DNA from: Antedon mediterranea
Lineage: Eukaryota; Animalia; Echinodermata
Reading direction: 5' to 3'
Assembly: GCF_964355755.1 (NCBI RefSeq)
Contig: NC_092678.1
Location: forward strand, 20,849,365-20,913,364
Length of the DNA stretch: 64,000 bases
A program made the position numbers and the translations under genes. This document shows positions 24,546 through 61,564 of the stretch, piece by piece. Each line of letters starts with the position of its first letter. Position 1 is the first letter of the stretch. The notes under the pieces are model-generated. The model was not told the origin of the DNA. It did not search any database and worked only from the letters and a program-made list of their open reading frames with translations.

Positions 24546-26358
24546 ATGGAGGAAAATCAAGATTCTACGAATTCTAGACGAAGGTACAGTGTCATCTTTA
24601 ATCAAGGATGCAATATTACATTTGGTTAATTTGTAGATTAATTCAATATTCGTCTGTGTTTGAAAGTTTTAGACAAATATAACTTGGCGAAGGTCCATCC
24701 TAGGCCTGGCTGGTAGTCGTGATACCTGCTTCACTGAAACCCCGCAGTCGTGTCCGGCCGAGTAGCAGCCGTCAAGCCGAGCAGTAAATCGCCTACTGAA
24801 CTGTGTATTCCTTGGCCTAGCCTTGGGGTAGTGTAGGCCTTAGTGCAATTGGTCCAGACCATAATGCCTAGTTAGCTATAGTTACTGTGCTAGCTAGGTA
24901 GGCTAGCTAGATGACTATAGCTAAGCTAGGTCTAGGCCTAGTAGTACAGCTAAAATATAGCCTAGCTAGGCCTAGGCCTAGTAATATAGTATAGATAGTA
25001 GGCCTAGCTAGCTGTGCCATGTGATAATACTGTAGGCCTATTATAGCCTATGTAGATAGGCCTAGATAGAATAGATAGGAATTTATACACATTACTACTA
25101 GGAGTAGAAGACTAGTTATAATAATATATTTTTAAAAGCGTCCTAGGATTCATTTTTCAAAAAGTGGTTTTTTACTCAAATGATGATTATTGATTAAATT
25201 AAATTTTCTTAATTATTTTCAGCTCTTCAAGTGCTGATGAAAGTATTGGAGAAGTTTGCAAGATAACACCATTGACTCCTTCGCAGTCACCAGACAACAA
25301 TGATAGTGAATCTGACAATGGCATTAAAGCAGCTGATAAAACGGAAGCAGAATCGCAGAACACTTCAGAGTCGGAAGATGGCGGCAACAGCTGTGATTCA
25401 AAGAAAGACACAAAAAATGAAGAAGCACAGAAAGAAGAAGAGGAAGTGAGTTCTCAGGATGATGCTAAAGAAACAGAAGATGAGGAGGAAGGAAACAGTA
25501 GTTCAAAAGATGAAAATAAAGAGTTAACTAATGAGGGTGATGAGGACAAAGAGGATGGTGGGAAAAAGGATGAAGCTGGTGTTCTTGAGGAGGATAATAG
25601 GTTACCAGAAGGATGGAAAAGAAAAGTTACTCAGAGACTGACCGGAAGATCTGCAGGAAAATTTGATGTGTATTTGATAAGGTAATGATATTTATTTTGC
25701 TATTACAGTAGAACCCCTCTTTGGTACAACACCCCCACCCCCCCCCCCCCCCCCCCACCCTTCCCATTTCTGTGTTCTAAACAAGGGACAAATGTCAGAA
25801 GAAGCTTTGAGAATCTGTTCGCTGCAAAATGACGCACCTCCAAAGAACTTGTACTGTAATACTAGTAATCTTGTTTAGTATAGTAAGCCCTTGATTAATA
25901 ATCAAATATAATATTTGTTCTTTTATTTACATTTTTGTTCGTTTAGCCCAACCAATAGACGTTTCCGTTCCCGGAACGAATTAGCAGCTTACTTTAAAGT
26001 AAATAAATCTGAATATGATGCGGATGATTTTGACTTTACCGTTCGTGGAACCGGAAATAAAGCTGCCACAAAAGCCAAACCGGCAACACCGAAAAGAAAG
26101 ACACCGGCAAAAAGGAAAAGCACAAGTAAGACAAAATCAACACCAGAAAAAAAGACTAAACAAAAACCAAACAAGTCTCCCGCAGGTAAGAATATACGCA
26201 AAGTTGCTCAACCGTCAACCGATAAGAGCAGTAAAAAGTATAATAAAGAACAATCAATGAAAAAATTGCTTGTAAAGATTAATTTTAAAGGAAGGGGGGA
26301 TGATGGAGAGGCGGAAGAGCAAGCAAGTACACCAAAGCGAGCCAGAAAGGAAAAATAG
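24546..26358 (+). CDS. Short MeCP2-like isoform (MBD + basic region + KLLVKINF motif) made by read-through of the donor at 26185
   Basis: The frame stays open past G|GTAAG at 26185/6 to TAG at 26358. It encodes KKLLVKINF, resembling MeCP2 GKLLVKMPF, and ends in the NLS-like TPKRARKEK. Confidence 0.65.
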
Positions 26359-31613: not shown

Positions 31614-31923
31614 CTATATATTGCTAATTCCTGGTTTGTGTATTCTGTGGAATATGTTATTACGTCACGGAAGATTGTGTATCCTGCAGCAACCCAATCG
31701 TCATGATCACCAGAGCATTGTGCAAATCCCAAAATGTTTCCCTTCCAGGAACACTACAAATTGGTTTCAATTGTGCGTTTTAAGATATTTTACAGTAGCA
31801 CTACCGTACTTATCTACATTATCTATCTATCTATTTATATATAAATCAATGATGTTGCGTAGCACTGTGTAAATTATATATAAATGTATCTGGTGGGTGA
31901 AAATCTGTGATAATACCATACAT

Positions 31924-31995
31924 GGCTCTGTGGTCTAGTGGTATGATACTCGCCCTGTAAGCGAGAGGTTGCAGGTTCGAATCCCGCCAGAGACA
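31924..31995 (+). tRNA. tRNA-like sequence (tRNA-Pro-like body, anticodon loop CCTGTAA); probable pseudogene or SINE head
   Basis: GGCTCTG/CAGAGAC acceptor stem (1 mismatch), A box TGGTCTAGTGG, anticodon stem CTCGC/GCGAG, B box GGTTCGAATCC, T-stem with one A-C mismatch, followed by a T-run. Confidence 0.55.
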
Positions 31996-33748
31996 TTTTT
32001 TCATACAACTAAAAAATACGGAACTTTCGCCAATGAGCTATGCTCGACGCGATTGTGAGATCATGTTCCGAATATGAGCACTGTTTCTATAATTTACAGT
32101 ATGATTTATATCTATTTATATATCTGTCTGTCTGTTCACATTATGTGCGTAGCCATCAATATGACCATTAGAGCATGACACAATGTTTTGTACTTACCGA
32201 TATAATATCCTACAAAATCTTTGAATATGTTTTCAATATCAAGAATTTTATTCAGTTACCATTTTGGATTTCAATATGGCTAACAAATATATTATTATAC
32301 TACATTATTAAGGGTCTACATAATTCATTCAATAACATTGACAGTATTTAGAAACAGTTCGAGAAATAAAAAAACATACATTAAATTAAATGGTAACAAT
32401 AAAAAATAAGAACTGTTGTTTGAGGGATCGGAAAAGGAAGTGACATGACAAATCATTTGCAAATGTTAGATATATAAAAAATTATAAAATATATTTCATT
32501 TAACAAAAATAACTACGGACAGTATAATTGTATTTAGAAATATATGTTTTTTTTACATATCACTATGAATCATTTATAGGCCTACCTATATTTACTGTTC
32601 ACTGTACTATCAAGTTCGGCCGCCGTCAATCTAACGATCGGTTATAATAATAAAATTGTTTTTAATATTATCGCCATATTAGATGTAGGAGCAGGACTCC
32701 TGAACAATTATTTTATTGTTTTATTTCTTAGAAAAATATTGATAAATATAATATTATTTCATATTTTAATGCTTCCTTATATATGTTGTAAATAATACAT
32801 CATTGTAATTATTTTATTTCATTTTTTCTTTTAAAAACACCCCACTTCCGATCTGGTCGGAAAAAAACAATTAGAAAAAGAAAACAAGTAATTTGATAAT
32901 TCTGTTTACTGTATTATAACAAAGATTGCTACATTCTGTTATAAAAGATTATTGTATTTCTTACAATTTCATCATAACAGAAATGCATAATGTAAACATA
33001 ATCTTAAGATCGGAGCCTTAAGTTAGTTTTCTTTTAAAAATGATATCTTATTATTTTATATTATTTTAAATTTTGGAATTCAAAATGATGGATTTTAAGA
33101 TATTCCCTGCTATTAAAATGTATTTTAGTTATCACTAGATGTGTATAAAGAATTATAAAGAAATGGACTAAAATTGTATAAGTTTGCGGCCATCTTTAAT
33201 TTAGAGATAGCGGCCTTATTTGGGGGCTATTTTTTAGGACCTACTTTTAATTTAAAATTTGATCAGAAATATTTTAAATCCATTTTAGGCCTATAAGACC
33301 AAAATACCGTAATATATTGTTTATCTTTTGAGGAATATGGGAAACTGTATACAAGAGTTTGAAATGAAAAATATAGTATGGAACTTTCGTAGATTCGAAC
33401 GATTTTCATCCCATGACTAAACGGTGTTGATTTATCTTGTCAGGCACCTCTGTGATATTGAGTAAAAAAAACAGGCCAATTGTCGGATGACCTAGAAAAG
33501 ATATTTTGCATAAGTGTAAATATGTTTGATGTTACTGTTAAGAATGAAATGAAAGCAAAATGTAATTAACCTATCAACTGCGTACTGTTTATTATATATT
33601 TCCTGAGAGTACAAGCGACCATTGTATGGGTTTACGGATTTCCTATCTATATAAATTGTACAATGAATAATACATTCCTACTAATCGGACAGACCTCTTT
33701 CTGAGTGGTACGCTGCTGATACTGTTGTGATACTTTTCCAAATGCGAA

Positions 33749-36700
33749 ATGGATATGTCAAATAAGAATAGGTCTATCTTTATTCCATCCGATGAAATTG
33801 ACTTCAGAGAGGTGACTAAACTCGGAAGAGGTTCAACTTCGATTGTCTATAAAGCCATACGAAAAACGAACAATGAAACGATTGAAGTAGCCGTGAAGAT
33901 GTATGACGAAGTATGCGAGAGAGAGATTACCATTCTTAAAGGTCTTCATCACAAAAATATCATAAAATTCTTTGGTCTTCTTGATAGGAAACTGACAGTT
34001 GGTGTTGTCTTAGAATTAGCATCTGATGGTAATTTAGGTCAGTATTTAGCTAGATTTGGACAAGAACGTAAAGATGCTGAAATTCCATCGCGATTACCAG
34101 AATCACAATTTGTTCAGTGGAGTTTAGACATCGCTTCTGCCGTTCAGTACTTACATAAGAAGTACATAATCCACAAAGACATCAAATCCTTGAATTGTTT
34201 GTTAAGTGATAATAAGGAAAACGGGATGAATGTGCTTAAGTTGTGTGATTTTGGGATTTCTAAACAAGTAGATGGTACAAGTACCGTAATTGGGACTGTT
34301 GGAGGGTGTACAAAACGCTGGTCTGCCCCTGAAGTTATCATAGACTCGAAATTGGTTTGTAAAAAATCTGATGTTTATTCACTGTGCGTTGTTTTATGGG
34401 AATTATGGACATGTCAGGCACCATGGGAAGGTGTAGGAGAGTTTGAAATATCATTGAATATAGTAAATGGGATTTTACTGAAGATACCAGAAGACTTTCC
34501 GGATGCATTGCGTCCAATGATTGAAACATGTTGGAGCACAGCAAGAGAACTACGTTACGATATCGATAAAGTGCTAGATTACCTAGGAAGTTTTAAAAAT
34601 TCTTCGATCGACAACGGTAATGTTTTTCATTATTTCATCTGCAGTAAATCGTTGAATATTTAAATATTATGGCCATAAGCCTACAAGAAAGTAAGATCTT
34701 TGTACCACCTTGTATTCTTGCCATTGTTTGGTTAATTTTGATTACATTTCTTTCAGATCGCATAAGAACAACCAGACCAGACCAGTGTTCAAATGAAAAT
34801 CATCATGTAGGCATATCTACAACAGATATCGATGATACACTTCAGAGCAGAGAAGTTATTTCAAAGCCTCTTGGAAATGATACAGTTGAAACGATACCGT
34901 TAACTATTAGCAGACCAGAGAAGAGCCATTCTTTAAATGGGTGTAATTTTGAAAAAGACGAAGAAAACAAAAAGAGTTTTGTACAATCATCAGAAAACTA
35001 TGACGTAGTACCTTACACGGATGAAGTAGTTTATTCATTTGAAGAAATGAATGTTCCTGATTTTGAGCATTTTGAAAGTTTAAATACGTCGGATGTAGAG
35101 AAGGTCACTGATAGCGTTTGTGATACCTATACAAACCACGTCTATGGTATGAATTGCAAAATGTTCCTACGGTTATCTGTAATAACAAGAACAACATTAT
35201 TTTCAATAAATTAATTTCATTTAGATCCAAATATTATGGGAGAGAATTTTGTTTTTCTAACCACGACGAAAGCAAACTGAACATTTGCGAAATGTCGTAA
35301 GTACCATATTTAGTACTTTTCGATCTATTGGATCAAAAAAAGAAAGTAATTCTCTCCTTAGAACAACAGAGAAATGTCTATCACACCACGTCAAGTATTA
35401 TTTTATTGGTAATTCAAATTTAAAACAAATTAAAGTGTTAGAGTATTTATATTGTCTGTTTGTTTAATTTCAGAACGGATACACCCTAAAATAGAAGAAA
35501 TGGAAAGTACAAAGATGTAAGCGTCTTTTTTTTACATAAAAGAGGCCTATAAATTATAAACACTCACACATTTCCAATTTAATTAAACATTTTGTTCTGT
35601 TTTTAATTCACATAGTTTTTTTTATTCGAGAAATAGTATTTCTCGTTATAAGCACGAATTGCAACTCTTCTTAATCCATCAGCATTTTGATATTTAGAAA
35701 GAGAGCCTATAATATCATAAAGTGAGTGAGTGGCCGAGCGGTTAAGACAGTGGAACCGTAATTAAGTAGCCATAACACCGACAAGGGTTCGAGGCTCACT
35801 CGCTCCATGGTCCTGGTGGTAGAACGAGTCTTCTCGGATAAGGACAATAAACCGTAGGTCCAGTGTACACATATAATAGCTCATGCGCACTTTAAAGAAC
35901 CTAGTACATCTTTCGAGACGAGTAGGGGGGTTACCCCGGTGTACTAGTCCACACAAACACAGCCACTGTCACACACAGCCACTGTGCAAATTGGGACTGG
36001 GCCGTTTTAGAGGTGTTTACCAGATCCTTCACTAACTGAGTTAGTGAGAAGTCGAATAAATAAATAAATAAATAGATAGTAGGCCTACATTTTGTTGATT
36101 GATTGATTGTCGATTGATATAAAATTATATTTAGTGTTCAAGAGCATGCCGTTATGCCTAACCTGAAAACACCCGTACCAATAGTGGATGACAATTTTGG
36201 TATGTATTTGGTAAAAATAAAATTTGGTAAATAACTGACTTTTGTTTACTTTAGCAGTCCCTTGTCAATTCTCCAACATTATTAACAAATAACTGTTTCC
36301 ATTCATTTAAAATTCTAAATTGAAACCGATATGTTTATTCTTAAATCTATATTGTGATTATTTTTTGTTATTACAGACGGTATTTGTTCACCACTTACTG
36401 GAAAATTGAATGAGGTAATTTCACATTTCTTCAATTATGGTGTCTAGTAATATACATAAAAAGTACTATTATTAATTTTTTTAAATGTTTCTCATTCCAT
36501 AATGACGATTCTGTCCCACCTTAAATTGTTTTATATCCTCAGGAAATTAATTAGAGAAATCGAAGCAATTGTTGCTATTTATTACTCACTCTGTGTCTGT
36601 TTATTATTTAGGCATTTTCCAAATTGTATGAACATATCGAAGAAAGCTACTCCACTCTAAAACTGGTCAAGGAAGAATTTTTCGATAAAAAGCGGTTTCA

Positions 36701-39700
36701 TGAGTTTTTAAGTGATAGAGAAAAAAGGCATTTGATGATAAATATTGTTGATGTAGAACGTTCAACAAAGAGGTGATGTCTATACAAATAATATGTCTAT
36801 ATAAGATACAATAATATGACTACATTTATTATGAAAGCAGATTTGTATTAAACACTATTGATCTAGATACAATGCCATTGAGTTGGTGACATGGGTTATA
36901 CTGTATCTATAATAACACTAATCCAAAAGGTGTTATTATATCTCCTTCTAAACCGCATGACCAAAAATTAACAACGTTTTTACGATGAGGCACTGGCTTT
37001 TCATTCCCCTCCATGTGTAATGATGACATTTGTTTACCTAGCAGTAGGACTGTAGACCTATTTAAATAAGCTTCGTTAGGACTGGTGATATAAGCCTATA
37101 ATGTAAAAGATTGGTTAACTTACTTCTCTTCATCTTGGCGGAACAGGTGCTAATCTCCACTTTATAATGTAAACATATTTACATTATTATTACTATTGTA
37201 TAAAGCCTCGTGTTAGGCAATAGTGAATTGTTATTCAATCTTTGTTTTTGGCAGACTGTACGATTCGTTCAAATCATGTCGGTGCCGGATTGATGTATGC
37301 AAATTAATAACCGACATCCTTGATTATGATTATCTTCAGCCAATGATGAACTTTGCGGTATATTCTCATATCCAATTGAACATGATTGAATCAATTAGGT
37401 AATTTCTTTATAAATGTATTGGTTTTAATATAATTTTATCACATGCTTGGTAGGCCTACTGTATACACGTACGGCGTTTGCTATGTTTAAGTCATGTAAT
37501 TGAATTTTGCAAGAACAAACGTGTTAAAAATAAAATGTATTAATGTATTAATATGGTAACATAATTCCGTAAGTTTAGACATGTTATGTTCTATAGTATG
37601 GCCTATGGCAATTGCTTTGACATAGGAATTGATTGTTAAAGACCTAACTTATGCCTACCACTGACCCTACTTTCAACTGTACTGCTTTTGTGGATTCACC
37701 TTATTATACTGTTGTCTGGTTTGTGAGCAGTTTAACTACAAAAAATACAATATCAATATAGCATAAAATGGCACTGCTATAGAGAACATTTCTGAATATG
37801 TGGATGATTTACTTATACCATATTTGACTGATCTCCTTTTATACATTCAGGACTCCGCCACGGACTTTATCCGCAAAATTAACCAAATTCAAAATGTACC
37901 TAATAATTCTGTCCTGGCTATATTAGATGTTTCATCGTTGTATACTAATATCCCGCCACATGTATTTTAAATTACAAACCATTCCAGGCAAAACGCCTAC
38001 TAAAGCTCATTTACGAGAACTGGTCATGTTGATTTTAACCAACAACAATTTTATTTTTGGAAATGATCATTACCTTTAAATTCATGGTACAGCGATGGGC
38101 ACAAAAATGGCGCTGTCTTTTGAAAATTTATTTATGGGAAAAATTTGAGGCCAATTTTCTGTCCCTCCAACCTAATAAACCACTTGTTTGGTTTAGATAC
38201 ATTGACGACATCTTCATGATCTGGACCCATGGTGAAGATAATTTGGAATCTTTTCTTCTCAATATTAATTCAGCCCACCCAACTATCAAATTTACAGCTA
38301 CCAAATCCAGTAGTAGCGTAGTATTTTTTGGACACTATAGTGACCATAGAAAATGGTACACTCAAAACTGACCTATTCCGTAAACCCATGGATTAAAATA
38401 TGTACCTTCTCCCTAGCTTGTCATCCCCGACACTGTACTAAAAACGGGTGTCACGAAACCTAAGACCACGAAAGCTAAGACCCCCTAAAACCTAAGATCA
38501 CGAAAGCTAAGACCCAAGACCTAAGATTACAAATTCTAAGATATACTACAGCTTAAAAACAATACTTGTTTATCCATACATAATTTTAAACACAGTAGGT
38601 TTCATTTATTACCATAAATATAATTTAATAGGCCTACTACCGCAAAACATAGATAAACTCACATTATTTTCGCCCGTTGAGTAAATATATATTTTTTCTT
38701 TACAACAAACAAACTTGACGGGTTGTTTGTTGGTATATATTTACTCCAATGTGTTGGTTCAGAGGATGTTTTTCTTACGCACCTGCCTTTCTTGTATTTT
38801 GACTCCAAATTTGTTGACTAACTTTATCCTGAATACCACACTTTAAAATTAGGACTTATAAGTACTTTCAGAAGGAGAAACACATAATAACAAATAAATA
38901 AATCCTTTAAATTTATGATTTTACAGACGTTTCTTTGTGTACTGTAATGTAACTCCGCTCCCCATGCTCAATGTTTTTGTTTCTATGGAGCGCCAAAAGA
39001 GCAACAATAATAGTACAAGTATAAAAACAGAAAGAAAACGAAACAAAAAAACTTATCATGATTTTTTAGTTAAAATTTATTTGCCAGTATTTATTTCTTC
39101 GTACTTGCATGATTATACTATTATCATTACAATTTTAATTTTACATTATGTGAATTATAAATTAGCTATTCAAATGATAATAATATGTATAAATCCATTG
39201 TTTAATACCTACCACAAATAATTGCCGATTATTGTATACATCAAGTTCATGTTTATTAGGTCAAAGGTCAATAACTTTACTTCCGGTCATTTTATAATTA
39301 TAAATTATTATTATTATTATATTATTATTAATAATTATTGTTGCATTACAATAAATATAAATATGTATGGTCTCAGCAATTTGAGACCATTTTTAAATTT
39401 CAATGACCAACCGTTTTTTAGATACAATGCAAGTCAAGGTCAAAGGTGAATAGTGCAGAAAAATAGCATTTCCTATTACATTTCGTCAAAATGTTCCATT
39501 ACAATGAATATAAATATATACGCTCCGAGTATTTTGATACCAATATCTTGTTGATAGACCAAAGGGATACGGAGATAGGACCAATTAATCGTGGGGTTGT
39601 TACCATGGTTACGGGATCGTGAAAATTGGTTACCTAGCATTTTGGTATCCTACCACCATATTAAAGAAGTGAAATCTCACTTTGGGCATTAAAATCCTAC

Positions 39701-42700
39701 GGAAATACACGAAGACCCTGACTATAAAATGCATACATTATATACGTTTTTAATGGCGGCCATCTTGGAATTCAATATGGCTGCCATATGCTATTATTAT
39801 AAATTGTACCATTGGACTGATTTATCATAATATGTAAGATTTATCACACAAATTACGTTCGTACGTTGTTTAAAATAGGAGCTACTATCAGTTTTGAGTA
39901 AAAAATGGGGGCCATTTTGAAATCCAAGATGGCGGCCAAAATAGGGTCTGAAAAAATTGGCCCCCAGTTGCAATGAATTCTGCTGGTCCCAAGGATTCCA
40001 AAAACTGCCAAGAACTCAACTTGAGCATTAAAATCTCACGGAACTGATTTTTGGAACATTTATACTAACAAATATCTTTTTATTAATATAATAATAATAA
40101 TATATCAAAAATTTATTAAATAATATTTATCGCATAATATGCAATCTACGATAATTTAATTAATTGATATAACAAATTTATTAAATACATAACATCATTT
40201 GAATAAAAAGAACAAAACCGTTCTATGGCCACCACCAGGTAGGCTTACTTCATCAAAGCTTCTATGAATGGATGTACTGGTTGGGAGCAGAAAAACTAGT
40301 AGACCATACCCAGTACCGTTTTGATTACGATCAATCGGGAAATTACCTAACGACGTTATATATGTTCTTCAGATTTAGATTTTCAGAATCGTACACCGAA
40401 GAACTAACCGGACATCTCCGGAACAGAAATTACAAGAAGGAATACATCGAAACTACTATAAAGAAAGCAAGAGATATTCCTCGATGTCAAACACTGACGT
40501 ACAAACCACGTCAGCCAAATTCGACCAGAATGCCATTGGTCACAACCTATTACCCGAGGTTGCCTCCATTACGGGCTATTATTGAGAAACATATGCCCAT
40601 TCTACAGTTCATAGAACGTCTCGGGACTGTTTTTCCGGAACCACCCATTATTGCAATTCGTAGACCCCCAACCTTCGTGATATATTAGTCAGATCCAAAT
40701 TTAAGAGTGAAATTAACTCTCATGGCAGCCAACATTTGGGAGTCACCTTTGCGGCAAATCTTGCAAAACTTGTTCATTGGTTGATTCTACTAAAAAATTT
40801 AAGAGTAACCAAACTGGCCGCATTTTTTGGATAAGACAATCAATTAATTGTCTAACCAAAAACGTCATTTATCTCATATACTGTAATATTTGTGGGAAAC
40901 ATTACGTCGAGGAAACAAAAAACACTCTCCGTATGAGAATGACACAACACAGATCAGCTATCAAAACATTAACGCTTGATCAACCTGTAGCCGAACATTT
41001 TAATTCAGCTGGTCACCATGATGTAAAATGGAGCGACAAAACTCGCAAAGACAAAGAAAATCACTGGGAATTACAACTTAAAACCACAAAACCTTTTGGA
41101 CTTAACATTAGGAACATACTCCCAGATCGGTAAAATTATTCCATTGACTACCAACATTTAAGTTTCGATATTAACCACCATTTAAGCTGTTTTTTAGTTT
41201 CATTCCAAAATTGTTTATATCTCTACCAAGCTACCTTCTTTGTTTTCTACTCTTATTCAGACTCCACCCTGTCTCCTTTTGTTGTATTTCTTTCATTCCT
41301 GTCTATCCAGGCAGCACTTGCCAGTTCTTATACTATGAAGTTATCCAAATTCATTCACCTTCAAAATCATAAAAGTATATAATATTTCATTCAAGTATGG
41401 TTGTCTGTAACGGCATGCATCAGTGCGTGTCATCACGTAATTTTGAACTAACTCTTCTCTATTAGTCGTCATGTTTTCTTATTACAGACATTGCATCGAT
41501 AGCGCAGGAAGCTTCATACATCAAGAGGATGAAGACAGCACACAACATACTTTGACATTTACAGATATCCAAACCATTCTTATGAAACAAGCTAATTGGC
41601 TGAAAAAACTTCAGAGCATAGTACAAGTAATTCGAATGCTAAATATCTGAAAAACAGCATTGCCTGACGCCTAATTATCTGATAATTGTCCTTCATTTTA
41701 TTTAAATTTCTAAACTGGTTTAGCATTATTAATCTTATTAATATATAGTTGTTATCACCGGCGCAGATCCTAGGGGACCCCTACACCCCCATATTTTTTA
41801 ATAGGGGATTTTCAACAGCAAAATTATTAAATTGTTGAAATGAAATAGAAAGACTTCTATGACACGCGTATCGTATGTGATTTTAGGAAGTTTCTATGAA
41901 GAATAGATTTTGCGTGAGTATAAGCAGTGGCGCATAATCAGGAAGTGCGTAACCCAAAATAATTGTATTCTTGCGGACGGAATTTTTATCTACTCAGAAA
42001 TTGATTGAAACGACTTATAAATTACTGCTTCCATGGGACTTCGCTCGCAAAGTATTTCCTTTTTATACGTCACCACCCCATAACTATTAAAAACGAATCT
42101 GCACCGTTAGTTGTTATTGAATATTATTAACATTATGATTTTGTAAATCATTTTAGAGTATCCATGGCGCTCTAGTTGCTGAGCCGACGACCATAGAGGG
42201 AGAATCGATCATTCAAGACTGTGAACAATGGCGTTACAAACTGAAGCAAATTGTTGATATTTGCAATGAACATGAACATCGAATAAATAAAAACATGGAA
42301 GATCACAGTACATCTTTGATACACAAGCTGACATTTTCGCCAGACGAAAAGAATAACAAAACAGTCCAAGTATTTTGTTTATATTAAATTTAAATTCTTT
42401 ATTTCTATTTTATTGAATTAGATTACAGACACAAATATAGCAGTGTTGTTTATTATCTTTCTATTTTGGTAATTATCTACATATTTTTAATCCCCAAAAC
42501 CTAAGTTCAAAAGAATGGTGTGTGGAGAAAGTTGGGTTAAAAAGAGAGGCCCCGTTACCGTTTTAGAGGACTCAGTGCGAGGAAAGAAACAAACAACAGA
42601 GAAAAAGGAATACACAATGATTGCTTTTGTTACCACCGTTCTAATTGTACAACCGAAAGGGTAAGATTATTTGCGTACGGCCACTTAAACAAGTTTTTGA

Positions 42701-45382
42701 TTCTCCTTTTAAGAAAACCAATTTTAATTATTGTTATGTAATCTGAGGTATCTTTCATAAAAAGCTTCCAGATTTCCTGAGACCCCCATTTCGCATTATT
42801 TATATATAATTTGTTTTCACATTATGATTCGATGAATAAACGTATTTATTTTTGTATTTGTACAAAAAATAATATTGCAATTATTTTGTTTAATGTTGTT
42901 TTCTCAGAAACTATTACAAGATGATAGATTGTATTCACAAGAAAGATATAAGATTTCATGGAGGTTACAATGTTGAAAACAACTTCAGAATAGAGGGAGA
43001 GCACACAACCGGAGAAAGAGTTGTATTGACCAAATTGGATCCTATTCGAAGGAATTCTGTTCAAAACTATGTACTTTATTTTGAAGACAGGTAAAGCATT
43101 TATTGTGTCATGTTTAAAAAAAAACACTGTAGAAATATAAACATGTCACTTCTCCCTCATAATCAGACATTGTTTAATAATGCAAGCTTCGTAACTTCTT
43201 AAATATGGAGGCATTCTCAATGATACAGTTCATATTAATTTTTGACTGCTCTACCATGTTGATTGTCAATTGGATCTTCCATACGTTTTTAACCGTTATT
43301 ACAGATCTGAAATTCCTGAATGGTCTACAGTATTGAAGTTTTCAGAAGAAGAAGATTTAGCACAGGAAATGGAATATTATAGTAAGCTTTAGCCTACATT
43401 TTAAATTAATAGAATGTAAAATGTTTCATGTAAAGAAAGAAGAAGGAGGTAAAAGTGGTACGGTATAATATAGCTCAAAAGATTAACAATGATATGATTT
43501 ATTGTCAATACAGATAGTGAATGTTAAAGATTTTGTTTACATAGTTTAATATTTTTATTTACTTTTTTAGATCCGTCTAACACAATATGTATAATTCTAA
43601 TTCTTAGGTACAACTTTGGAGATACTGGATAAAACAAAGGAACATTCTCCGTCTGAATGTCAACTGAATCATAGAATAGGTACTGTTGGCATAGCATATT
43701 GAATATTCCTTTTGTAATATGTAGTGATTATGTGTCACATTGTCTTCTAATATTTACTGTAGGCCTACTATTATTTAGTTAGTGTGTGTATTATTTTCTG
43801 TTGCTCAAAAAATGTTTTTTTTTTTTATAGAAAAGAAAGATCTTGAAGTGGAAGTTAGTATTTCATTTTTTTTTTCTGGTTAATGAAGTTCTTATAATAA
43901 GACTTAATAACTAACTTAAGAGAAAATGTTCTTCCCTCAATAGAAACAAAATATAAATTACATACCGTCTGAATAAATATTCTTTTGTGAATTCTTAATT
44001 TGAAAAATATATATTTTTAAGTACTAATAATATTGATTACGGAATGATAAATGCTAATGTAGTCTGTAAACGAGTTTACCAGATTTATTCTGCATGCTTT
44101 TATTTAAAATCTTTTTTTAGTTTCTTGAGTTTTTAACTTCAGCAAAAATTATCTTTAAAAAAAATACGTTTATTATCCATACAGTAGAAAACGTGTACCA
44201 TTGCGGACAACATTTTAATTGTACCATTGTGCATTTGTGGTTGATTATGTAGTTCATATACTTCTTCAATACATACAAATGCTATAATACAACATGTGCT
44301 TTTATTTATGTTCTTTTTCTTTTTTTTTTACAAAGAAATTATTAGGTATTGCTGATCTGAACAAGGCGACCATTAAAAGTCTTTCAAAACTTCATGAATT
44401 ATATATCATGAAGTTCTGCAGTCAAATTATTGAAGAAGGAGTAAAGTATCATATTTTCCGTAATATAATGGAAGTCAAAGACATGATTGAAAGGTATTAA
44501 TTCGATAATGAATAATAAAGAAGATTTATAAAGACAAGTTTATTACTTTGGTATTCACAAATATTTCATATCATTAACAATTATACCGAATTTAATTTAA
44601 ATTTCATTTTGCGTTTATGATCAAATTTAAAAATACCTCTATGAATCGAATCTTTTCACTCATATATTGTGATAAGATATGTAATTGACGCAACTCAATG
44701 CTACAAAATAACGTTATCTTCTCTTAAAGTTTTGACAGTGTGTTAGAAGGTAATCGTCTAGACAGTTTCGCATACTTTACTGAACTAAATAAACGATTGA
44801 AGGAAGGTTCGTTTAAGCCAATTGTTGAATATCAAGCCAACTTGCCTTTTCAACGGAATATGCTTCAATTCCAAAGGTACAGTATAGTGTAATAGACTTT
44901 AGTGATGAAAGCTTACGTAAACATAGGCTATTTTACGATTAGGGTACGGTGCGTTAAAGAAACCCATTTTGTTATCACTCCTAAAGATTTCTATAAACAC
45001 ACAAAACAATGCTTCCTTACTGATATTTTATTTTGTTATAGTGATTAGTAAATGATTTTCTAGTTTGTTTTTTGTATTGATTTCTATTTTGAGATGCTTG
45101 TACTTTGATTTACATGTTTCTTTTATCTCGTGTTTATGTAAGGGCTTCTTGAATGTCAACATTTGCCGTTTTTCTTTAATAAACAAAAAACAAGTTTTTA
45201 AAAAAATATTTACTTTTAATCAGAGAACATAATAGAGCACTTATACAAGTGCTTGGAAATTTTGAGCGAAATGTCAAAACAAAAAGCCGTATTTCTGAGA
45301 TGGACTTGCAGTTACGGATTTCGAAACCTCAGGAATGGCTAACGTCTCTTTATAGAAAGTCTAAGGTAACATTTATTTAATA

Positions 45383-45436
<54 letters not shown>

Positions 45437-48400
45437 ACAAGAGGCAAAGAACATTAATTCTAAACCGCCCTGTGATATACTGAAATTTAATTAATTAATT
45501 TGAAACGATAAAGATGAGGTAGCATTTATTTATATATATATATATAAACACATTAGGCAATGAACATTAATTCGAAAACGGCTAGGGTTATAGTCAGTCA
45601 GAGGTGGAGCAGCTAATGTATAACTTTATAATGATGTTGTAGCTTGAAATACCAGAACAAATCATCATCTTTTCAATATTAAAGAAACATGATATTATCA
45701 TATTATAGTAGCGTCACTAGCTGCTGATTCGATTTATTGTTCCTGCACTATCCATTTGTATGTTATTGATTTAATTGATTGATTTGTCCAGGCTCTAAAC
45801 AAAGCATTTAAAGGTCCAACCGACCAGCCTAACCATCGGTTGCAAATACATACAATTCATATGCTAGAGAAACTTATTCAAGAAGAACAAGAACTCACGA
45901 AAAGTGTAGAAAAAGACTTACACATGACGTCAGTGCTGCTCAACTTACCAACTGAACTGGTATCAAAAGATCGTCAATTATTATACGTAAGTTAAAGTTT
46001 GTTCGGTTGATTCTTTTTTTATATTTACCAATTTAAAGTTACTTGATTTACATATTATAATTATGTATGTCTCAACATATTTAGGATGTCGCCCAAAATA
46101 CACGGGTAGGTCCGTCAGTATATAATGTTATAGTGTATTGAATAGCTTGAAATAGGCCTACCCGAAAACTGCCTCTTTTCCATATTAAAGAAACACTAAA
46201 TTACTTTTAACTGTTAATATTTTAATATTATTTTATTTGATTTTAATTGGTTGCTAGTTTGTGCATAATAATGTTGATGCCTTTCTCTCTGTAAAAAAAG
46301 TTACGCACTTAGCTACCATTATTTTTAGTCGCGTGCAACGCTACTCTACAGCTCACTATGTCGGTCGGTTGGTCGGTAGGTAAACACTAACTTGAGCACG
46401 CGACTGCCGCTATGTATATGGCCTTGTTTTTTATGAGGGGCATTTGACAATCCTACTCCTACTTAAGCTAGGTAAATGACGTACAAGAAGACGGATACAA
46501 AGCTTCTTATGTTACTATTCTCTTTCTAAACTATAGAAACTATCACAAATAAAAGATGATTGGTTAAAAAAGCACGGTTGTTTTATGTTATATACCAAGA
46601 GAAAGACTGACGACGGAAACCCACTGAAGAATATTAGAAAGAAATATTCACAAAAAGAGATTCATATTTACGCTTCAGCCTCAGTCATTATTTTGACATC
46701 GTAAGTAACAATATTTTTATTTAAACTTATAATTTTTTTTAAATAAAATTGATTGTAAAGATTTCGTTTTAAAACTAAACGCTTTGACCTATAAACTTAC
46801 ATACACTTTGTCATTAAAGTTTTGGACTAACAATGGTAGTTTAATTTAAAATCTGTCTTGTCTACACCATTCAAATTAAATCAATTAAAAGTTGATTGTT
46901 TCAGGAAACAATTTTGTAATTGCTATGATCGAAATTATACTGATATTGAAGTTGTTGACGCAAGAAACAGAAAAAGTTGGATGCCTGAAAAAGGTTTTTT
47001 GTTTAAGTTGTGGATATATAAGAAAGTAGGCCTCGTAGACGATTATCAGCCAGTGGAATACCTTCTTGGATTTACCTCAGGGAGTGACCAAATTGAGTAA
47101 GTGTCAGAACCTTTTATTGACGCGCCACACGCAGCTTTCGAGTAGGAAAATGCGCATGTTTAGAAACATAATGCAAAACATTTACAAATCAAAGTGCGAG
47201 AAAAAATTATGAGATCTTAAGCAATCTGTACTTGTGTGTTTGTTAAGTTTTTTTGTAATAACGACTTCATTTACTGTATGTTTAGGAAAGATTTCAAAGA
47301 ATGGAAAGCAGCACTCGTCGTGGCTACTGGTGAATCTGGAAAATATGATGATTATAGTAGGCAATTATTTTTTTTGAATTTATATATTAAAATAAAATGT
47401 CTCATAATATACATTAAAGATGTATTGTCCCTTTGACTAATTCCAAAAAAATAAAAAATAATAGATTTCGAAAAAAGGTGGGTCATTTTGAAGTATCATA
47501 ATAGTTATTAACTATCACCAAAAATTTTTCGAAAAAAAAAAAATTTAACTGAAATACAGACGTTTTTTTGGTAAAAAAATAACTTTGACTTCCAGTCAAA
47601 GTTTTCAATCAAAACATATCCCATAATGAAACGCGCTTGTTTGGCTACTCTGTATGCATAATCATAAAACTTCCTCATGATCTGTGTGAAAATACCTTCT
47701 TAACCGTGACGAGTTGTAAACAATCCTAATTTAGCAATATATGCATAATGCGTACTCATGGTTTGAAATCTTTGTTTACTTTCGCTCGTGACGATTTTCC
47801 AGATGAAATGTAATCAAACTAATTTACCTGTTAATTATGTAAACTTGTTGTTTTTGGCTCAAATTTTCGACTTAAAGTGAATAACTTTAATATTACTTTG
47901 ATATGGCCACTTTAAATTTAGAATATTTTGACCTTCATTTTTTTGTGTTTCAAGGGACAATACATCTTTAAAGAGTACTATTATGAGTAACCAATTTCGA
48001 GATGAAAAAAGGTATATCAATTTTTTTTATTTTTAGTAGGCCTATAAGCATAATCCTATGTTAATAATACTACTGTATATTTTTCTATCAAACGGTAAAA
48101 CAAGTAGTGTGTCACAAATTGATCTTTAAATGGGCGAAGACGTTTTACTTTTATATTAGGCTATGAATATTATACTGTTAAGCAATTACTTAATCAGAAG
48201 GTTTTTATTTATAGGTCGACCAATACACATTGTAACAACGGTTTTTGTCACTAACAAAGACGACGAACTTCAACTGGATGTGAATGACTTTGTGGAACTT
48301 CTTGAAAATCGACAAGTCAAGAATGAAAGTAAATATTTGACTGGAACTTGTATTCTTGCATTCTATCGAGGAATGTTTATTAATGTCTAATTTGGAGAAG

Positions 48401-49068
48401 ACAACAAAAACATGCCTACATAGAGTGATTTACAAATGAATGATTTACATTAAGTGAACTTGAATTCATGATTTACATAATTCCTGTTATATTTTTATTT
48501 AGTTTGGGTAAGAGGTATACGTCAACGTGACGGAATGTCTGGGTGGTTTCCAAGCACAATTTTAGGATCACAACGGGATGAACAATATAGCTATGGCCAG
48601 AAAATAAAACTTCGGTGTAAAAAAGAAAGAGAAAATGAATATGAAGACGACAAATCAAGCTATAAGTAAACATTTTTTTTTGTATCTCAAAGATGTTATT
48701 TTATTGAATATGTATTCGTATCTTGTTCATTGTAAATAATTATTAATTTATTTTTTTATTTTAGCAACGATGCCATCCAAGTTAGAAAGAAAGACCGTGA
48801 CACAACTACTAGAAACCCCAGGAAATCGTCTAAAGATAAATCAAAACGATTATCATTTTATTTTAGGCCTATCAGTAGGCTTCTGATGAATCAGAATGCA
48901 TGTATTGCACCTAAGGACACAGACTTGTATCAAGAAATACGTGTTGGTAATGTGGAAACATCTTGCAGCGTATTAGACCGAACCTCCCACTATGACTACA
49001 TTTGTTCTGACATTGAGTTTGATGACGGCGGGTACGTTAAGGTTGCTCCGTATAATAAGAATAATTAG
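33749..49068 (+). CDS. TKL-type (non-RD) protein kinase fused to DH-PH-DH-PH-SH3 (ephexin/SGEF-like, degenerate), ~1406 aa
   Basis: 24 phase-compatible GT-AG exons totalling 4221 nt: 33749-34616, 34757-35146, 35474-35516, 36135-36199, 36377-36414, 36612-36772, 37255-37398, 41488-41626, 42157-42369, 42506-42660, 42908-43090, 43305-43381, 43608-43679, 43831-43853, 44336-44493, 44730-44876, 45224-45365, 45792-45986, 46537-46700, 46905-47096, 47286-47356, 48215-48328, 48503-48665, 48765-49068. Kinase motifs: GRGSTS, VAVK, HKDIKSLN, DFG, APE. DH-like: EKRHLMINIVDV, IVDICNE, YHIFRNIMEV. PH-like: WVKKRG, WLKKHG, VEYLLG, EWKAAL. SH3: DELQL...WVRGIRQRDGMSGWFP. Confidence 0.8.
35721..36074 (+). mobile_element. 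tRNA-derived SINE, copy 3
   Basis: A box TGGCCGAGCGG, B box GGTTCGAGGC, shared body (gtccagtgtacacat, ctttcgagacgagtagggg), (TAAA)n tail. Confidence 0.85.
37740..41133 (+). mobile_element. Decayed Penelope-like retroelement (RT + GIY-YIG endonuclease), split by an ~2 kb insertion
   Basis: RT remnants LDVSSLYTNIP, GTAMGTKMA, WFRYIDDIFMIW, HPTIKFT (~37740-38443). It resumes at ~40390 with MPLVTTYYP and the GIY-YIG region CLTKNVIYLIYCNICGKHYVEETKN...RMTQHR..VAEHFN. Frameshifts and stops are present. Confidence 0.85.
38444..40390. mobile_element. Composite insertion inside the Penelope-like element (DNA-transposon-like remnants)
   Basis: Begins with cgggtgtcacgaaa followed by repeated (c/g)ctaagacc subterminal units (38444-38542); ~39750-39940 carries ggcggccatcttg / caagatggcggcc hairpin motifs. 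Confidence 0.5.
45387..45432. repeat. (TA)n microsatellite
   Basis: Uninterrupted AT dinucleotide run. Confidence 0.95.
47418..47967. mobile_element. Non-autonomous DNA transposon with TTAA target-site duplication
   Basis: TTAA|agatgtattgtccctt ... aagggacaatacatct|TTAA; a similar right end lies at ~59866-59883. Confidence 0.8.
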
Positions 49069-50500
49069 CATAATGATGAGTACTTTAAGATCGGTCCGTA
49101 TAATAAGAATAATTTGCATAATGATGAGTACCTTAAGATTGGTCCGTATAATAAGAATAATTAGCATAATGATGAGTACCTTAAGATTTGTCCGTATAAT
49201 AAGAATAATTAGCATAATGATGAGTACCTTAAGATTTGTCCGTATAATAAGAATAATTAGCATAATGATGAGTACTTTAAGATCGGTCCGTATAATAAGA
49301 ATAATTTGCATAATGACGGGTACCTTAAGATTGGTCCGTATAATAAGAATAATTAGCATAATGATGAGTACCTTAAGATTTGTCCGTATAATAAGAATAA
49401 TTAGCATAATGATGAGTACCTTAAGATTTGTCCGTATAATAAGAATAATTAGCATAATGATGAGTACCTTAAGCTTTGTCCGTATAATAAGAATAATTAG
49501 CATAATGATGAGTACATTAAGATTGGTCCGTATAATAATAATAATTAGCATAATGATGAGTACCTTAAGATTGCTCCGTATAATAAGAATAATTAGCATA
49601 ATGATGAGTACCTTAAGATTGCTCCGTATAATGAGAATAATTAGCATAATGATGAGTACCTTAAGATTGCTCCGTATAATGAGAATAATTAGCATAATGA
49701 TGAGTACCTTAAGATGGGTCCGTATAGTAAGAGTAATTAGCATAATGATGAGTACATTAAGATTGGTCCGTATAATAATAATAATTAGCATAATGATTTT
49801 ATTTATTTATTTTATGTCTTTAGGCAATGATGAGTACCTTAAGATTGCTCCGTATAATAAGAATAATTAGCATAATGATGAGTACCTTAAGATTGCTCCG
49901 TATAATGAGAATAATTAGCATAATGATGAGTACCTTAAGATTTGTCCGTATAATAAGAATAATTAGCATAATGATGAGTACCTTAAGATTTGTCCGTATA
50001 ATAAGAATAATTAGCATAATGATGAGTACCTTAAGCTTTGTCCGTATAATAAGAATAATTAGCATAATGATGAGTACATTAAGATTGGTCCGTATAATAA
50101 TAATAATTAGCATAATGATGAGTACCTTAAGATTGCTCCGTATAATAAGAATAATTAGCATAATGATGAGTACCTTAAGATTGCTCCGTATAATGAGAAT
50201 AATTAGCATAATGATGAGTACCTTAAGATTGCTCCGTATAATGAGAATAATTAGCATAATGATGAGTACCTTAAGATGGGTCTGTATAGTAAGAATAATT
50301 AGCATAATGATGAGTACATTAAGATTGGTCCGTATAATAATAATAATTAGCATAATGATGAGTAAGTATTTAAGATTAGTCCGTATAATAAGAATAATTA
50401 GCATAATTACGGGTACCTTAAGATTGGCCCTTATAATAAGAATAATTAGCATGATGATGAGTACCTTAAGATTGGTCCGTATAAGAATAATTTGCATAAT
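49021..50500 (+). repeat. 48-bp minisatellite (~30 units) derived from the last codons and stop codon of the kinase-GEF gene
   Basis: Unit aatgatgagtaccttaagattggtccgtataataagaataattagcat; the first unit is the coding DDGGYVKVAPYNKNN*. Confidence 0.95.
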
Positions 50501-50900: not shown

Positions 50901-51360
50901 AAATTAGAAATATCGGAATATTTGTGTTTATCCAAAATATCGGAGGGAAATTGCATTTTATCGGGAGATCGGGAAGTGACTAAAAAGAGACTCCCGCCAT
51001 TATAGGGAGAATTGGGGTTTTTTTGCCAAATACATTTGTTTCTGACCGCAATACGTCACTGGTCTTTTGTTTGTTACATTCCATGCATTTTATTTATGGT
51101 ATTCTTTGTCGTGTCGTGCCATTGAATGGTAATGTTGTTTAGTCTATATACATACATTCATAACGTTTGGGTTTTTTTTATAGAGAGTTTAATGCTGTTA
51201 ATACTGTAGATTGGTTCTAGTTATTATAGTTTTTTTTTTTATTCTTTCTATTTCTCCTTCAATTGTGGTTGTGGTCTTCATCGAGTTTGTGTATCCCCAT
51301 AAGAGTTATTCGAATTTTGCATCTACAGCTGTTCCTTAAATAGAACAAGCAAAGGTACTG
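50901..51360 (+). repeat. Duplicated flank of the 24-bp satellite (copy 1)
   Basis: Near-identical to 62016-62477 (aaattagaaatatcgg...gaacaagcaaaggtactg). Confidence 0.9.
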
Positions 51361-57780: not shown

Positions 57781-58669
57781 ATGAGTGAGTCAAATTGGGA
57801 GTTTTTTATTCCAAAGGATGAAATTGAGTTCGGAGAGTATATTGTGCTTGGGGAAGGCTTCGCTTCGGTTGTGTATAAAGCTACACGTAAAACGGTTAAC
57901 AACAACATTGGAGTAGCCGTGAAGTTTTATCAAAGACTAGAAAGCCAGCGTGAGGAAGCCTGTATTCTTAAAGATCTTGATCACAAAAATATCATAAAAT
58001 TCTACGGTCTTTATAAACCACATGGTGGTGTGATGAGCTTACATGGCATTGTCCTGGAATTGGCATCTGAGGGAAATTTGTCAAATTTTTTAACCAGAAA
58101 TAGAGAGCAAAGTCAAACTGCGGGAATACTCTTCAGATTACCAGAATCTCAGTTTGTTCAGTGGAGTATTGACATCGCTTCTGCCCTTCAGTACTTGCAC
58201 AAGAAGAACATAATCCACAAAGACATTAAATCACCAAATGTTCTATTAAGCGATGTCAAGGAAAACGGGTTTAACGTACTTAAATTGTGTGATTTTGGAA
58301 GTTGTAAAGAACTACAAAATGCATGTACCACAGTGACTGCCATTACATCTGCAGGAGGCTTTACAAGATGTTGGGCTGCACCTGAAGTTCTCCAACATCC
58401 AAGAATTGTATCTAAAACATCGGATGTTTACTCGTTTTGTGTTGTTCTATGGGAATTATGGACTTGCCAGGAACCGTGGAAAGGCTTTGGAGAGGTTGAA
58501 ATGATAATGAATGTAATTAACGGTACTTTTCTTGAGATTCCAAACGACTTTCCGGAGGTATTGCGTCCAATGATAAAACAGTGTTGGAGCAGCGCAGGGG
58601 TACAAAGGTGCGAAATTGACGAAGTGCTAGAATATCTGGAGAAGTTCAGAAGGTTTTTGATAGATAACG
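57781..58669 (+). CDS. Second TKL-type non-RD kinase exon, paralogous to 33749-34616
   Basis: Motifs GEGFASVVY, VAVK, HKDIKSPN, DFG, WAAPE, SDVYSFCVVLWELWTCQEPW. It shares RLPESQFVQWS and ends at the same DN-G|GTAA donor. The unspliced ORF stops at 58698. Confidence 0.85.
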
Positions 58670-61564
58670 GTAAAAGTTTTTATTCTACAGTCATTTAGCT
58701 GGGGTATACTGTAATGTAATAAGCCAGTGTTTTTCCAAAAACATCTGAGTAAATAAGTTCTTTACAAAAAAACGTAAAAGTAACAAAAAATTCAACAACA
58801 TAATGAAGATAAACAAATAAAATTACAGTATGTATTCAATGTGTTGTATTAGACTAGAACAACTTGCAACAGATTTTTTCTGGTTTATTTAGTCCAAAGG
58901 AATGTCATTTCCAAAGTTGACCAAAATCGGACATCAGGAAGTGGGCTAATTAGCATAAAATCAAGATGGCCGCTATTCACTGTACCATTTTGAAGCTCCT
59001 TATCGGTTGGTTTTAGACCAACTAAGTGCAGTAGAAATAAATGTGATTTTAAAATGATACAATTAGCATATTTAAAGAACTATATGACATACCTACAGGG
59101 GCGGATTTAGGGGCCGCCCCGCCCCTTTTGCAAACTATAAAAAAAAAATTTTGTTGACACGTGACACGTTTACGTATTCACGCACAGCAGTTTTTATAAA
59201 TAAAGAATGATTAATTTCAAAGTGTTTCTATCATTCCATCGGATCGAATATTTGTTATTGCCATTAGGTCTACATCTACATTGTTTAACCGCGGCCGACG
59301 TTGTCTTCCTACGCCATTAAATATTTCATGAGTTGAAAAACTTCACTGCTCTGCATAACAAGAGACGAGTTAGGCCTAAATAGAGCAGTCAACTCATCAT
59401 CCAATCACCATCCAACATTCACTATTTTGTATAATAAATAATTTCATAGGCCAATTTTAAATTATTGATCATTATTATTAAAACAGGATATATAACAACA
59501 AATATTTCTTACAAAAAACGCCACTCGCTTCTTAACTTAACAGTTTTAAAGATATATTATCTCCCTAAACATATTTTTTTCAAATTTGCTTTGGAATGTG
59601 TCATTATAATGTCACATAATAGCTTTTCACTTTAACCAAAAAATGGATTGAAAAAAAATATTATTTACCTGAAAAAAATGTAATTTAAAGCAAAAAAATA
59701 TTTAAATTGTCTTTCAGACAATGGTTTTTGGTAAAATTAAACGTTTCTTTACTCTTTTTATAAATTAAATAATGTTTTTTTTTTACAGAAGTAAATAACT
59801 TTATTAAAACTGCAAAATTACCTACTTAAAGTCTGATTTTATTAATCTTCAATTTCATGTTTTTAGGGGACGATACATCTTAAATTATTGATCTTTCTTC
59901 AGAAATAATGATTTGTTATCAATTATTTTGTTTAAAAATCAGTAGTAAACATTTTGTGTAACGTAAATATATAGTCTGGCCCACTTTACAGAACAAAAAT
60001 ATAAGCATAAACTAAACTATAGTACTGTAGCCTACTTTGAGTAGATAGTAGTTCACTTAAACACACAAAAATAGAAAAAAAGTATCCTACTTTGAATTTA
60101 TTTAATTCAAATCACTTTAAAAAGAATTTACAGATTACCGTCTACATGCATCTCAATAATACTGTATTATCCGCAAAAGTTTTCATAGACTCTCTTCTCC
60201 CAGACGTGCTTTAGGGCTTGTAATTTGAGAATGACCCGTCCGAGTTTACAAAATTACAAAACTGTCAGCCTCTAGAACTATAGCTTCCGCTTGATATAGC
60301 TTCTGAATGAGTAGTCCTCTGGGAATATAGCTGGCTAAAGCCGCGGCGCAAAAACAACAAAAAGCATAACAAAGTAAGTTCGTAGAAAAGGGGTAGTAAA
60401 TTCATTTAATTTAATTTATTTCCCTTTAAAGTTTTACAAAGTAAAGGAGCCTAAAAGAAAGCAAAGCTTGTAATGAATAGGCTCCTCAAAACAAAAACAA
60501 AAACATATAAGAGTACAGTAGGCCTATGTGTTCCCTCGCTAAGTAAACTTATTTCTTACTTTGTTAGCAGTTGGCTGTAAATTAATGTTGCAGACAGTAT
60601 TTTGACTCATAACAGGGGCGGACCCAGGAGTGTTGCCCTAGTGACCCGGGCAACACCCTTAATTTCATACTAAATGTTGATTCTGCCACTAAATTAAAAT
60701 TGAGTCCCATTTCATCAAGACCCGGAACTTGATAGGCCTAGTCATAGAGTTGCAGGGCATTTTATCATTGTTGAATGTTTTGACGTTAGCTTAATTGTTA
60801 AAATTGATAAAAGAAGTAATGCTAGCGCCAACGAAATTAACGACCTTCACAACCAAAATATTTCTATGTAACAAAATTTATTGTAAATGGAACGCTACAA
60901 AAATAATCCTCCGCTTCATCACTACATGAATACCTAATAACCAGACAAGAACGTATCTTTGTTACGTTTTACTATCAATCCATTTTCATATCACGCAATC
61001 CATTTTTCAACAATATAGTAGTATAATAATATTTTGATTGAATAGTGAGAGATTAGTTACAGTGTTGACTTTGAATAAACCATTGGTAATTTACTGAAAA
61101 TCCAATATGAACTTGTGTTATAATACAAACAAAATTATTCAATCAAAGAAACGCTAAAACATGACAATAGATGTCGGTCGATAAACTTCTGACGACGACT
61201 AAAACAACGACAATCAGCTAAATAAATGTATTCGTGATTTTATTTCATCTCTGGCTTTTTACATTATCATGACACATTACCGGACTCTCCCCTCCTCTCG
61301 CAATGATCGGCAGTAGATATCGTCCCTATCTAGGCTTGTGTATGTAGCCTACAACGTCATTCACAAATTACTCACGCATAGCAGTTTTACTAGCGCCATC
61401 ACAGATTACCTCTAATGAATTCAAAAATTCATCGACAAACGAAATATAGCCTATATTCATTCCTTTTAAATATTAGGCATATAGCCAAAGCTAATAATCG
61501 ATTTGTCCATAATTATTGCGTTTTGCCAGCTTTATACTATGACGTTAACCAAATTCCTTCACTT

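Follow-up and report, generated by a model that had tools for sequence, protein, structure and literature searches.

In this study, we analyzed a gene at positions 33749..49068 of a window of 64,000 nucleotides (nt) from the crinoid Antedon mediterranea (contig NC_092678.1, 20,849,365 to 20,913,364, forward strand; all coordinates below are positions in this window), and found that it encodes a real, apparently undescribed crinoid fusion of known parts: an N-terminal kinase, two units that each combine a DH and a PH domain, an SH3 domain and a tail with tyrosine motifs. The reading that we favor, with a probability of about 0.55, is that an active ZAK/MLK-like kinase is steered by a catalytically dead guanine nucleotide exchange factor (GEF) scaffold. 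The order of kinase, DH-PH, DH-PH and SH3, which an initial annotation of this sequence had proposed, recurred in three other crinoid gene models: the full order, for which that annotation had recommended a search, was found in one chain in P0003 and P0121 of Anneissia japonica (1404 and 1399 amino acids (aa), respectively) and in P0122/P0163 of Antedon mediterranea (1421 aa for P0122), with identities of 40-46%.

Gene structure and exon support

The exon list was rebuilt from the sequence, and because exons were picked for keeping the frame, the open frame alone is no test of the gene. The rebuilt set agreed with the earlier claim of 24 exons in frame without stops (4221 nt, ~1406 aa): its product of 1406 aa had a single stop, at the end, and GT..AG boundaries were present in 23 of 23 introns. 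The parts of the gene, together with two features inside its introns, are as follows.

33749..34616, plus strand: exon 1, holding the entire TKL kinase domain by itself, aa 1-289, and ending in a phase-1 donor
34757-35146, 35474-35516, 36135-36199 and 36377-36414, plus strand: exons 2-5, acidic and poorly conserved linker, aa 290-468
36612-36772, 37255-37398, 41488-41626 and 42157-42369, plus strand: exons 6-9, degenerate DH domain 1 (DH1), approximately aa 469-665
42506-42660, 42908-43090 and 43305-43381, plus strand: exons 10-12, PH domain 1 (PH1), approximately aa 688-820
43608-43679, 43831-43853, 44336-44493, 44730-44876, 45224-45365 and 45792-45986, plus strand: exons 13-18, short linker and degenerate DH domain 2 (DH2), approximately aa 844-1051
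46537-46700, 46905-47096 and 47286-47356, plus strand: exons 19-21, PH domain 2, approximately aa 1080-1200
48215-48328 and 48503-48665, plus strand: exons 22-23, ephexin-type SH3 domain (aa 1217-1275) and the helix after it
48765..49068, plus strand: exon 24, tail with tyrosine motifs, predicted to be disordered, aa 1306-1406
43421..43448, plus strand: alternative first coding exon of XP_071959974.1, inside intron 12
37800..41130, plus strand: repeats of high copy number within intron 7, in which decayed frames of reverse-transcriptase and endonuclease-like type occur

Independent support came from homologous proteins. In a tblastn search of the window with the full-length relative P0122, 17 of the 24 exons were matched in order (exons 1, 6-12 and 15-23); exon 12 was matched with an E-value of 0.06 by this protein and of 2e-5 by P0159. 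Exons 13-24 encode 580 residues identical to RefSeq XP_071959974.1 (P0126) of Antedon mediterranea. Homology of the linker exons 2, 4 and 5 was partial only (23/66 to P0164, and 5/13 and 7/12 to P0124, respectively), and exon 3 had no homology support from the relatives compared. The repeat frames in intron 7, which we take from their motifs to be Penelope-like, had no Pfam match.

Ephexin origin of the DH-PH-SH3 units

Judging from sequence profiles and modeled folds, both DH-PH units and the SH3 domain are ephexin-derived, and profile, fold and Protein Data Bank (PDB) matches agreed on the origin that had been claimed for them. Above the cut-off, Pfam recognized only the kinase and the SH3 domain on the full-length relatives, and the SH3 domain on P0126 with an E-value of 3e-5, whereas its RhoGEF and PH models detected neither DH-PH unit on these relatives or on P0126. 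Thus, the HMMER-type search proposed by the initial annotation recovered the kinase and SH3 domains and missed the RhoGEF and PH domains, yet the latter were seen by profile-profile comparison: with hhalign against 13 ephexin-type proteins over 301 columns, unit 1 reached a probability of 93% (E-value 3.5e-7) and unit 2 one of 98% (E-value 1e-13), compared with 0.1-0.7% for five column-shuffled control versions of unit 1. When a profile of four sequences was compared with PDB, Ephexin4 was the sole DH protein among 15 matches (E-value 1.9e-11), and language-model features, which are leads only, pointed to RhoGEF-PH for unit 1 (0.92) and to Ephexin-1 for unit 2 (0.93).

Structure prediction, also suggested earlier as a check, recovered DH and PH folds. 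The 3' half of the gene itself was modeled with a predicted local distance difference test (pLDDT) score of ~90 over residues 31-490, and its top Foldseek match was the DH-PH-SH3 region of Ephexin4 (E-value 1.7e-19), with the domains arranged unlike the crystal (root-mean-square deviation (rmsd) 11 over 315 residues). DH2 resembled DH2 of Kalirin (Z 18.5; 190 residues aligned with an rmsd of 2.3), and for PH1, the corresponding part of P0121 gave a PH fold (Z 12.3; 94 residues aligned with an rmsd of 2.5).

Loss of exchange residues

We compared the residues needed for nucleotide exchange between ephexins and crinoid units. The Glu of conserved region 1 (CR1) was present in 12 of 12 ephexins and the Gln and Arg of conserved region 3 (CR3) in 13 of 13, whereas none of 22 crinoid units had kept any of them; this difference is the basis on which both DH domains are predicted to be pseudo-GEFs. 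The alpha6 Asn was found in 12 of 13 ephexins vs 6 of 22 crinoid units. In DH1 of the window gene, the CR1 Glu is replaced by I477 and the CR3 Gln-Arg pair by N606-W607, with the alpha6 residue retained (Asn653), and the corresponding positions in DH2 are N866, E996-W997 and Q1039. Trp takes the place of the CR3 Arg in all unit 1 and unit 2 sequences. The 'LQR' mutation of Ephexin5 presumably hits the CR3 Gln-Arg motif. CR1 and CR3 are described as GTPase-facing regions (PMC8305018), and the Ephexin5 'LQR' mutant as GEF-dead (PMC11939064).

Invariant sites made up 6 of 14 in the former GTPase-facing patch of DH1 and 29 of 177 outside it (nominal p 0.025, based on six related sequences). Since the residues that replaced the former exchange surface are themselves conserved, the patch hints at a new binding surface.

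The kinase

The kinase in exon 1 is ZAK/MLK-like and non-RD, with an intact active site; its assignment follows from database matches, the kinase tree having had no named ZAK/MLK sequence and an Amphiura kinase as its nearest outgroup row. A TKL-like N-terminal kinase had been claimed before, and both Pfam (PK_Tyr_Ser-Thr, E-value 3e-48) and the best PDB sequence match, ZAK/MAP3K20 (E-value 1.3e-30), bore this out; in addition, RefSeq names the paralogue P0164 'MAP3K20-like'. Exon 1 contains the VAVK lysine, the alphaC Glu, HKDIKSLN (non-RD), DFG and WSAPE motifs, with the Lys, Glu, Asp and Asn intact. All 10 family kinases have HKD in place of HRD, and catalytic motifs were intact in nine of them, the exception being P0001, in which DFG reads DVG and the Lys of the catalytic loop is replaced by Thr. 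On the full-length relatives, neither SAM or CRIB domains (Pfam) nor an N-terminal SH3 domain could be found; a zipper was not searched for separately.

A crinoid family and shuffling of the kinase exon

When 1.84 billion representatives were searched with a profile, 37 matches were obtained. Fifteen of these were named proteins with degenerate units, and all 15 were from crinoids, in agreement with the proposed restriction to one lineage. Among the other 22, the 14 that were scanned comprised 13 ordinary RhoGEF-SH3 proteins and one multi-SH3 protein, none with a kinase, and the remaining eight, unscanned, matched the SH3 stretch. On these matches, the fusion is crinoid-restricted. In a tree of the units, whose outgroup consisted of ephexins only and included no crinoid ephexin, all 23 crinoid rows stood apart from the 13 ephexins (100/100, long branches). 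Units 1 and 2 formed separate clades (100/99 each), and because each clade holds both Antedon and Anneissia rows, the double unit is older than the split between these genera.

The family is variable, with one or two units and the kinase present or absent. P0130-P0135 and P0137 form a crinoid group that lacks the kinase and has either a single degenerate DH-PH-SH3 unit or two of them; exchange residues are absent throughout, and five of its members are located on one Antedon contig. Over 46906-47030, variants of exon 20 occurred in DNA contigs at several times single-copy depth, and a contig of the RNA run X5 had 10 differences there; further paralogues are therefore indicated.

The kinase was also found in another setting. 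In P0001 (XP_071959976.1), an N-terminal sister kinase is fused to Roc-COR-Death-Death, and the window contains a second kinase exon:

57781..58698, plus strand: second single-exon HKD kinase, annotated as a solo protein of 305 aa, 58% identical to exon 1

This second kinase is sister to that of P0001 and ends in the same phase-1 donor motif as exon 1; downstream of it, the rest of the window contained no more family exons. In the trees, both of these sister kinases stood next to the kinase of the window gene, and in the best ones the P0001 kinase was nested within those joined to DH units (98, 100/99 and 95/99). A first approximately unbiased (AU) test gave p 0.02 but had also forced out two unassigned kinases, and a clean AU test gave p 0.16 and so left other placements unrejected. 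Shuffling of the kinase exon between architectures is well supported, and the direction implied by the nesting is favored but not shown. A 24-bp satellite forms two arrays (51359-56987 and 62484-63840) that flank the second kinase exon and could favor unequal crossing-over in the kinase cluster.

Transcript structure and apparent hemizygosity of the window copy

The fusion architecture is secure for the crinoid family, and we consider it likely, from the sequence and its relatives, that the window copy is also made as one piece. Of the invariant columns of unit 1, 8 of 95 are altered in the window copy; this is not above the values for two paralogues (10 of 97 and 12 of 99) and so gives no sign of decay. 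P0122 has two isoforms, which are distinguished by a single residue at the junction of exons 9 and 10; at this place, the window gene has an extra Phe. No single-exon read-through form of exon 1 was present in the protein collection. Run X5 is RNA, as one of its contigs skips the intron 25680-25944 of an upstream MBD4-like gene; it contained 0.03 of the sequence words of the window gene and no listed exon joint, a result in which an absent allele and a silent gene look alike.

Depth and variation set this copy apart from its surroundings. In three DNA runs from one sample, the median depth of unique contigs over the gene was 0.55, 0.52 and 0.36 of that of the upstream MBD4-like region, a rough measure that concerns one individual and the longest contigs. 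In run X1, there were 0 differences from the window over ~10.8 kb of the gene vs 15 over ~3.7 kb in five upstream contigs, and the GC content of gene and upstream contigs overlapped (0.29-0.37 vs 0.27-0.39). With half depth and no variants, the gene looks hemizygous: the window copy would be on one haplotype only, or its second allele would be very divergent.

Proposed mechanism and alternative explanations

In the mechanism that we propose, this copy would be spliced as one transcript, and the protein would be recruited to the membrane cortex and to proline-rich partners through its PH and SH3 domains. Partner binding may fall to the DH surfaces, particularly to that of DH1, which has become conserved again; the partner might be a Rho GTPase that is bound without exchange. 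Such binding, or clustering, would switch the kinase on. ZAK/MLK kinases act on p38/JNK-type stress output, and by analogy the output here might be a p38/JNK-type stress or defense response. The family seems to evolve by duplication, loss and exon shuffling. If so, a GEF fold has been reused as a non-catalytic module and joined to a kinase in one animal class, in a family that escapes the standard RhoGEF profile and whose RefSeq entries are mostly 'uncharacterized'. The pseudo-GEF function should be directly testable, because an active ephexin serves as the control.

Several observations weighed against an active kinase on a dead scaffold. The RefSeq model of the window copy covers exons 13-24 only, starting behind a different first exon; the description of 'one intact gene' in the initial annotation is likely to hold, from the family models with the full order, and no RNA shows it for this copy. 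Searches with exon 1, covering proteins of 158-2000 aa, revealed no database protein with this kinase exon, the neighboring locus is also apparently split (P0164 plus P0124), and none of the RNA runs listed included 33749-37400, so that no junction is shown, which is no evidence either way. As for the scaffold, the patch of DH2 was not specially conserved (4 of 14 vs 50 of 177 sites, p 0.6), and residual activity of DH1 is possible because of its alpha6 Asn. The good fold of the 3' half is biased, since its alignment included the 13 ephexins, and a model from four crinoid sequences alone was poor (pLDDT 36.6), with only PH1 clearly recovered. Moreover, the binding partners and the output of the scaffold are inferred. 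Some of these points would fit a window copy that is split while the fusion is real in the family, its 3' half being made from inside intron 12 and its kinase-DH1 half being separate or silent: XP_071959974.1 begins at 43421, exon 1 is in no annotated protein, and relatives are often modeled as halves or truncated (P0164/P0124, P0128/P0129, P0002 and P0123). Such a split seems improbable, however. The alternative ATG lies only 39 nt past the exon-12 donor, which is a good one, and for this reason the first exon at 43421..43448 is likely to be a prediction artefact; exons 6-12 are open, in phase and conserved to the level of the paralogues; and the close paralogues P0124 and P0159 each cross the exon 12/13 junction in a single model, and in P0159 the DH part is, in addition, joined to the kinase end.

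Alternatively, GEF activity might persist in one or both DH domains, with an altered catalytic surface, in a Trio-like combination of GEF and kinase with the kinase at the opposite end. The DH fold is preserved, and DH1 combines its alpha6 Asn with conserved substituted residues; with the CR1 Glu and CR3 Gln-Arg missing from 22 of 22 units, Trp at the Arg site and no unit detected by Pfam RhoGEF, we regard this as very improbable. The two units could also be integrated decoys, that is, dead copies of a host RhoGEF that bait microbial or parasite effectors directed against ephexin/Rho signaling, their binding or modification firing the attached non-RD kinase. The HKD motif of all family kinases would be in line with this, as non-RD kinases are linked to innate immunity (PMC8463890), but the replacement of Arg by Lys is conservative and leaves the site basic, so the immune link may not apply. 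The sister kinase on Roc-COR-Death-Death and the expanded, variable family also point in this direction. Hemizygosity has a bearing on both sides: in a study of mussels, immune and Death-domain functions are enriched among hemizygous dispensable genes, whereas protein kinases are under-represented there (PMC7653742). A decoy might further be expected to keep its GEF surface, which is changed here; we consider the decoy reading unlikely. In a wider version, tentative and equally doubtful, crinoids would have modular intracellular immune sensors, in which a mobile single-exon non-RD kinase cassette with haplotype-variable presence is placed on varied sensing arms, namely, in this gene, dead ephexin GEF units as decoys for effectors directed at Rho signaling and, in the sister gene, Roc-COR-Death-Death. 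Through the kinase swap to Roc-COR-Death and the hemizygosity that is apparent here, the family becomes a concrete candidate for variable intracellular defense signaling in echinoderms.

Comparison with known systems

Ephexins (NGEF and ARHGEF5/15/16/19/26; Ephexin4 structure 7CSO) share a C-terminal DH-PH-SH3 order with the crinoid protein and are nearest to it in sequence and fold. They have one DH-PH unit and no kinase, whereas the crinoid gene has two such units and an N-terminal kinase; their architecture and regulation are described in PMC6406967 and PMC4954681. The LYQ motif of their N-terminal inhibitory helix (PMC4954681) is resembled by a YQ before DH1 in several relatives, five of which have YQNL there (P0003, P0121, P0122, P0123 and P0128), and the window gene lacks it. 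Because exchange residues are missing, the crinoid protein is ephexin-derived yet no ephexin.

The kinase of Trio and Kalirin, with which obscurin was grouped for comparison, is C-terminal, whereas that of the crinoid protein is N-terminal. Trio and Kalirin likewise carry both a kinase and two DH-PH units on a single chain, and their kinase comes from SPEG/titin-type kinases with Ig/FN domains (PMC5499878), in contrast with the TKL-type crinoid kinase. Furthermore, their GEF units are active, whereas the crinoid units are ephexin-derived and predicted to be dead; the Ig/FN3, Sec14 and spectrin repeats of Trio/Kalirin were not among the Pfam matches on the full-length crinoid relatives. ZAK/MAP3K20 and MLK/DLK, which gave the best PDB matches to exon 1, differ from the crinoid protein in its HKD motif, the absence of a Pfam SAM domain and the pseudo-GEF fusion. 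The LISK-family kinase DDB0229867 of Dictyostelium also combines a TKL kinase and a RhoGEF in one chain; it is reported to have one RhoGEF domain and an IQ motif (PMC1420674). Since it belongs to a different lineage, it is likely an independent fusion.

Kinase-fusion resistance proteins of plants carry integrated decoy domains: the kinase is joined to a host domain that has been copied, within a family that is variable and changes fast. If the units here are decoys, the crinoid protein would be an animal counterpart of these proteins, by analogy only, as the fused domains are not homologous. In literature on crinoid or echinoderm kinase-RhoGEF proteins and ephexins, on kinase family expansion in feather star genomes and on Antedon immunity (including PMC11310086), no description of the architecture was found among the papers listed, which is in keeping with its having been called undescribed; supplements could list such genes.

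Tail and minisatellite

The tail is an optional part. A tyrosine-motif tail had been included in the proposed architecture, and such a tail exists; its motifs were weak evidence, with two acidic YxxPhi motifs vs 0.5 expected (p 0.087) and a nominal excess (p 0.006-0.04) in four of seven other segments. It had a loose match in P0124/P0159 and was absent from P0003, P0121 and P0122. We therefore rejected the tail as a defining signaling part. It runs into a tandem repeat:

49032..50500, unstranded: 48-bp minisatellite, whose first unit gives the last codons and the stop of the gene

A tyrosine motif recurs in every minisatellite unit, and in most units an in-frame stop codon as well; the first unit supplies the last motif of the tail.

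Other features of the window

A frame at 6153-7127 encodes an AIG1/GIMAP-type GTPase (Pfam AIG1, E-value 3.5e-35), a group often tied to immunity. Several tandem gene pieces similar to the inter-alpha-trypsin-inhibitor heavy chain (VWA) occupy 8400-19000 on the minus strand. The MBD4-like gene at 25200-31610 contains a 27-bp repeat in a coding exon and is represented by the spliced contig in run X5. A proline-rich, WASP/WIP-like frame with two WH2 motifs was found at 557-1144, and a tRNA-Thr (TGT) was identified by ARAGORN at 31923-31996.

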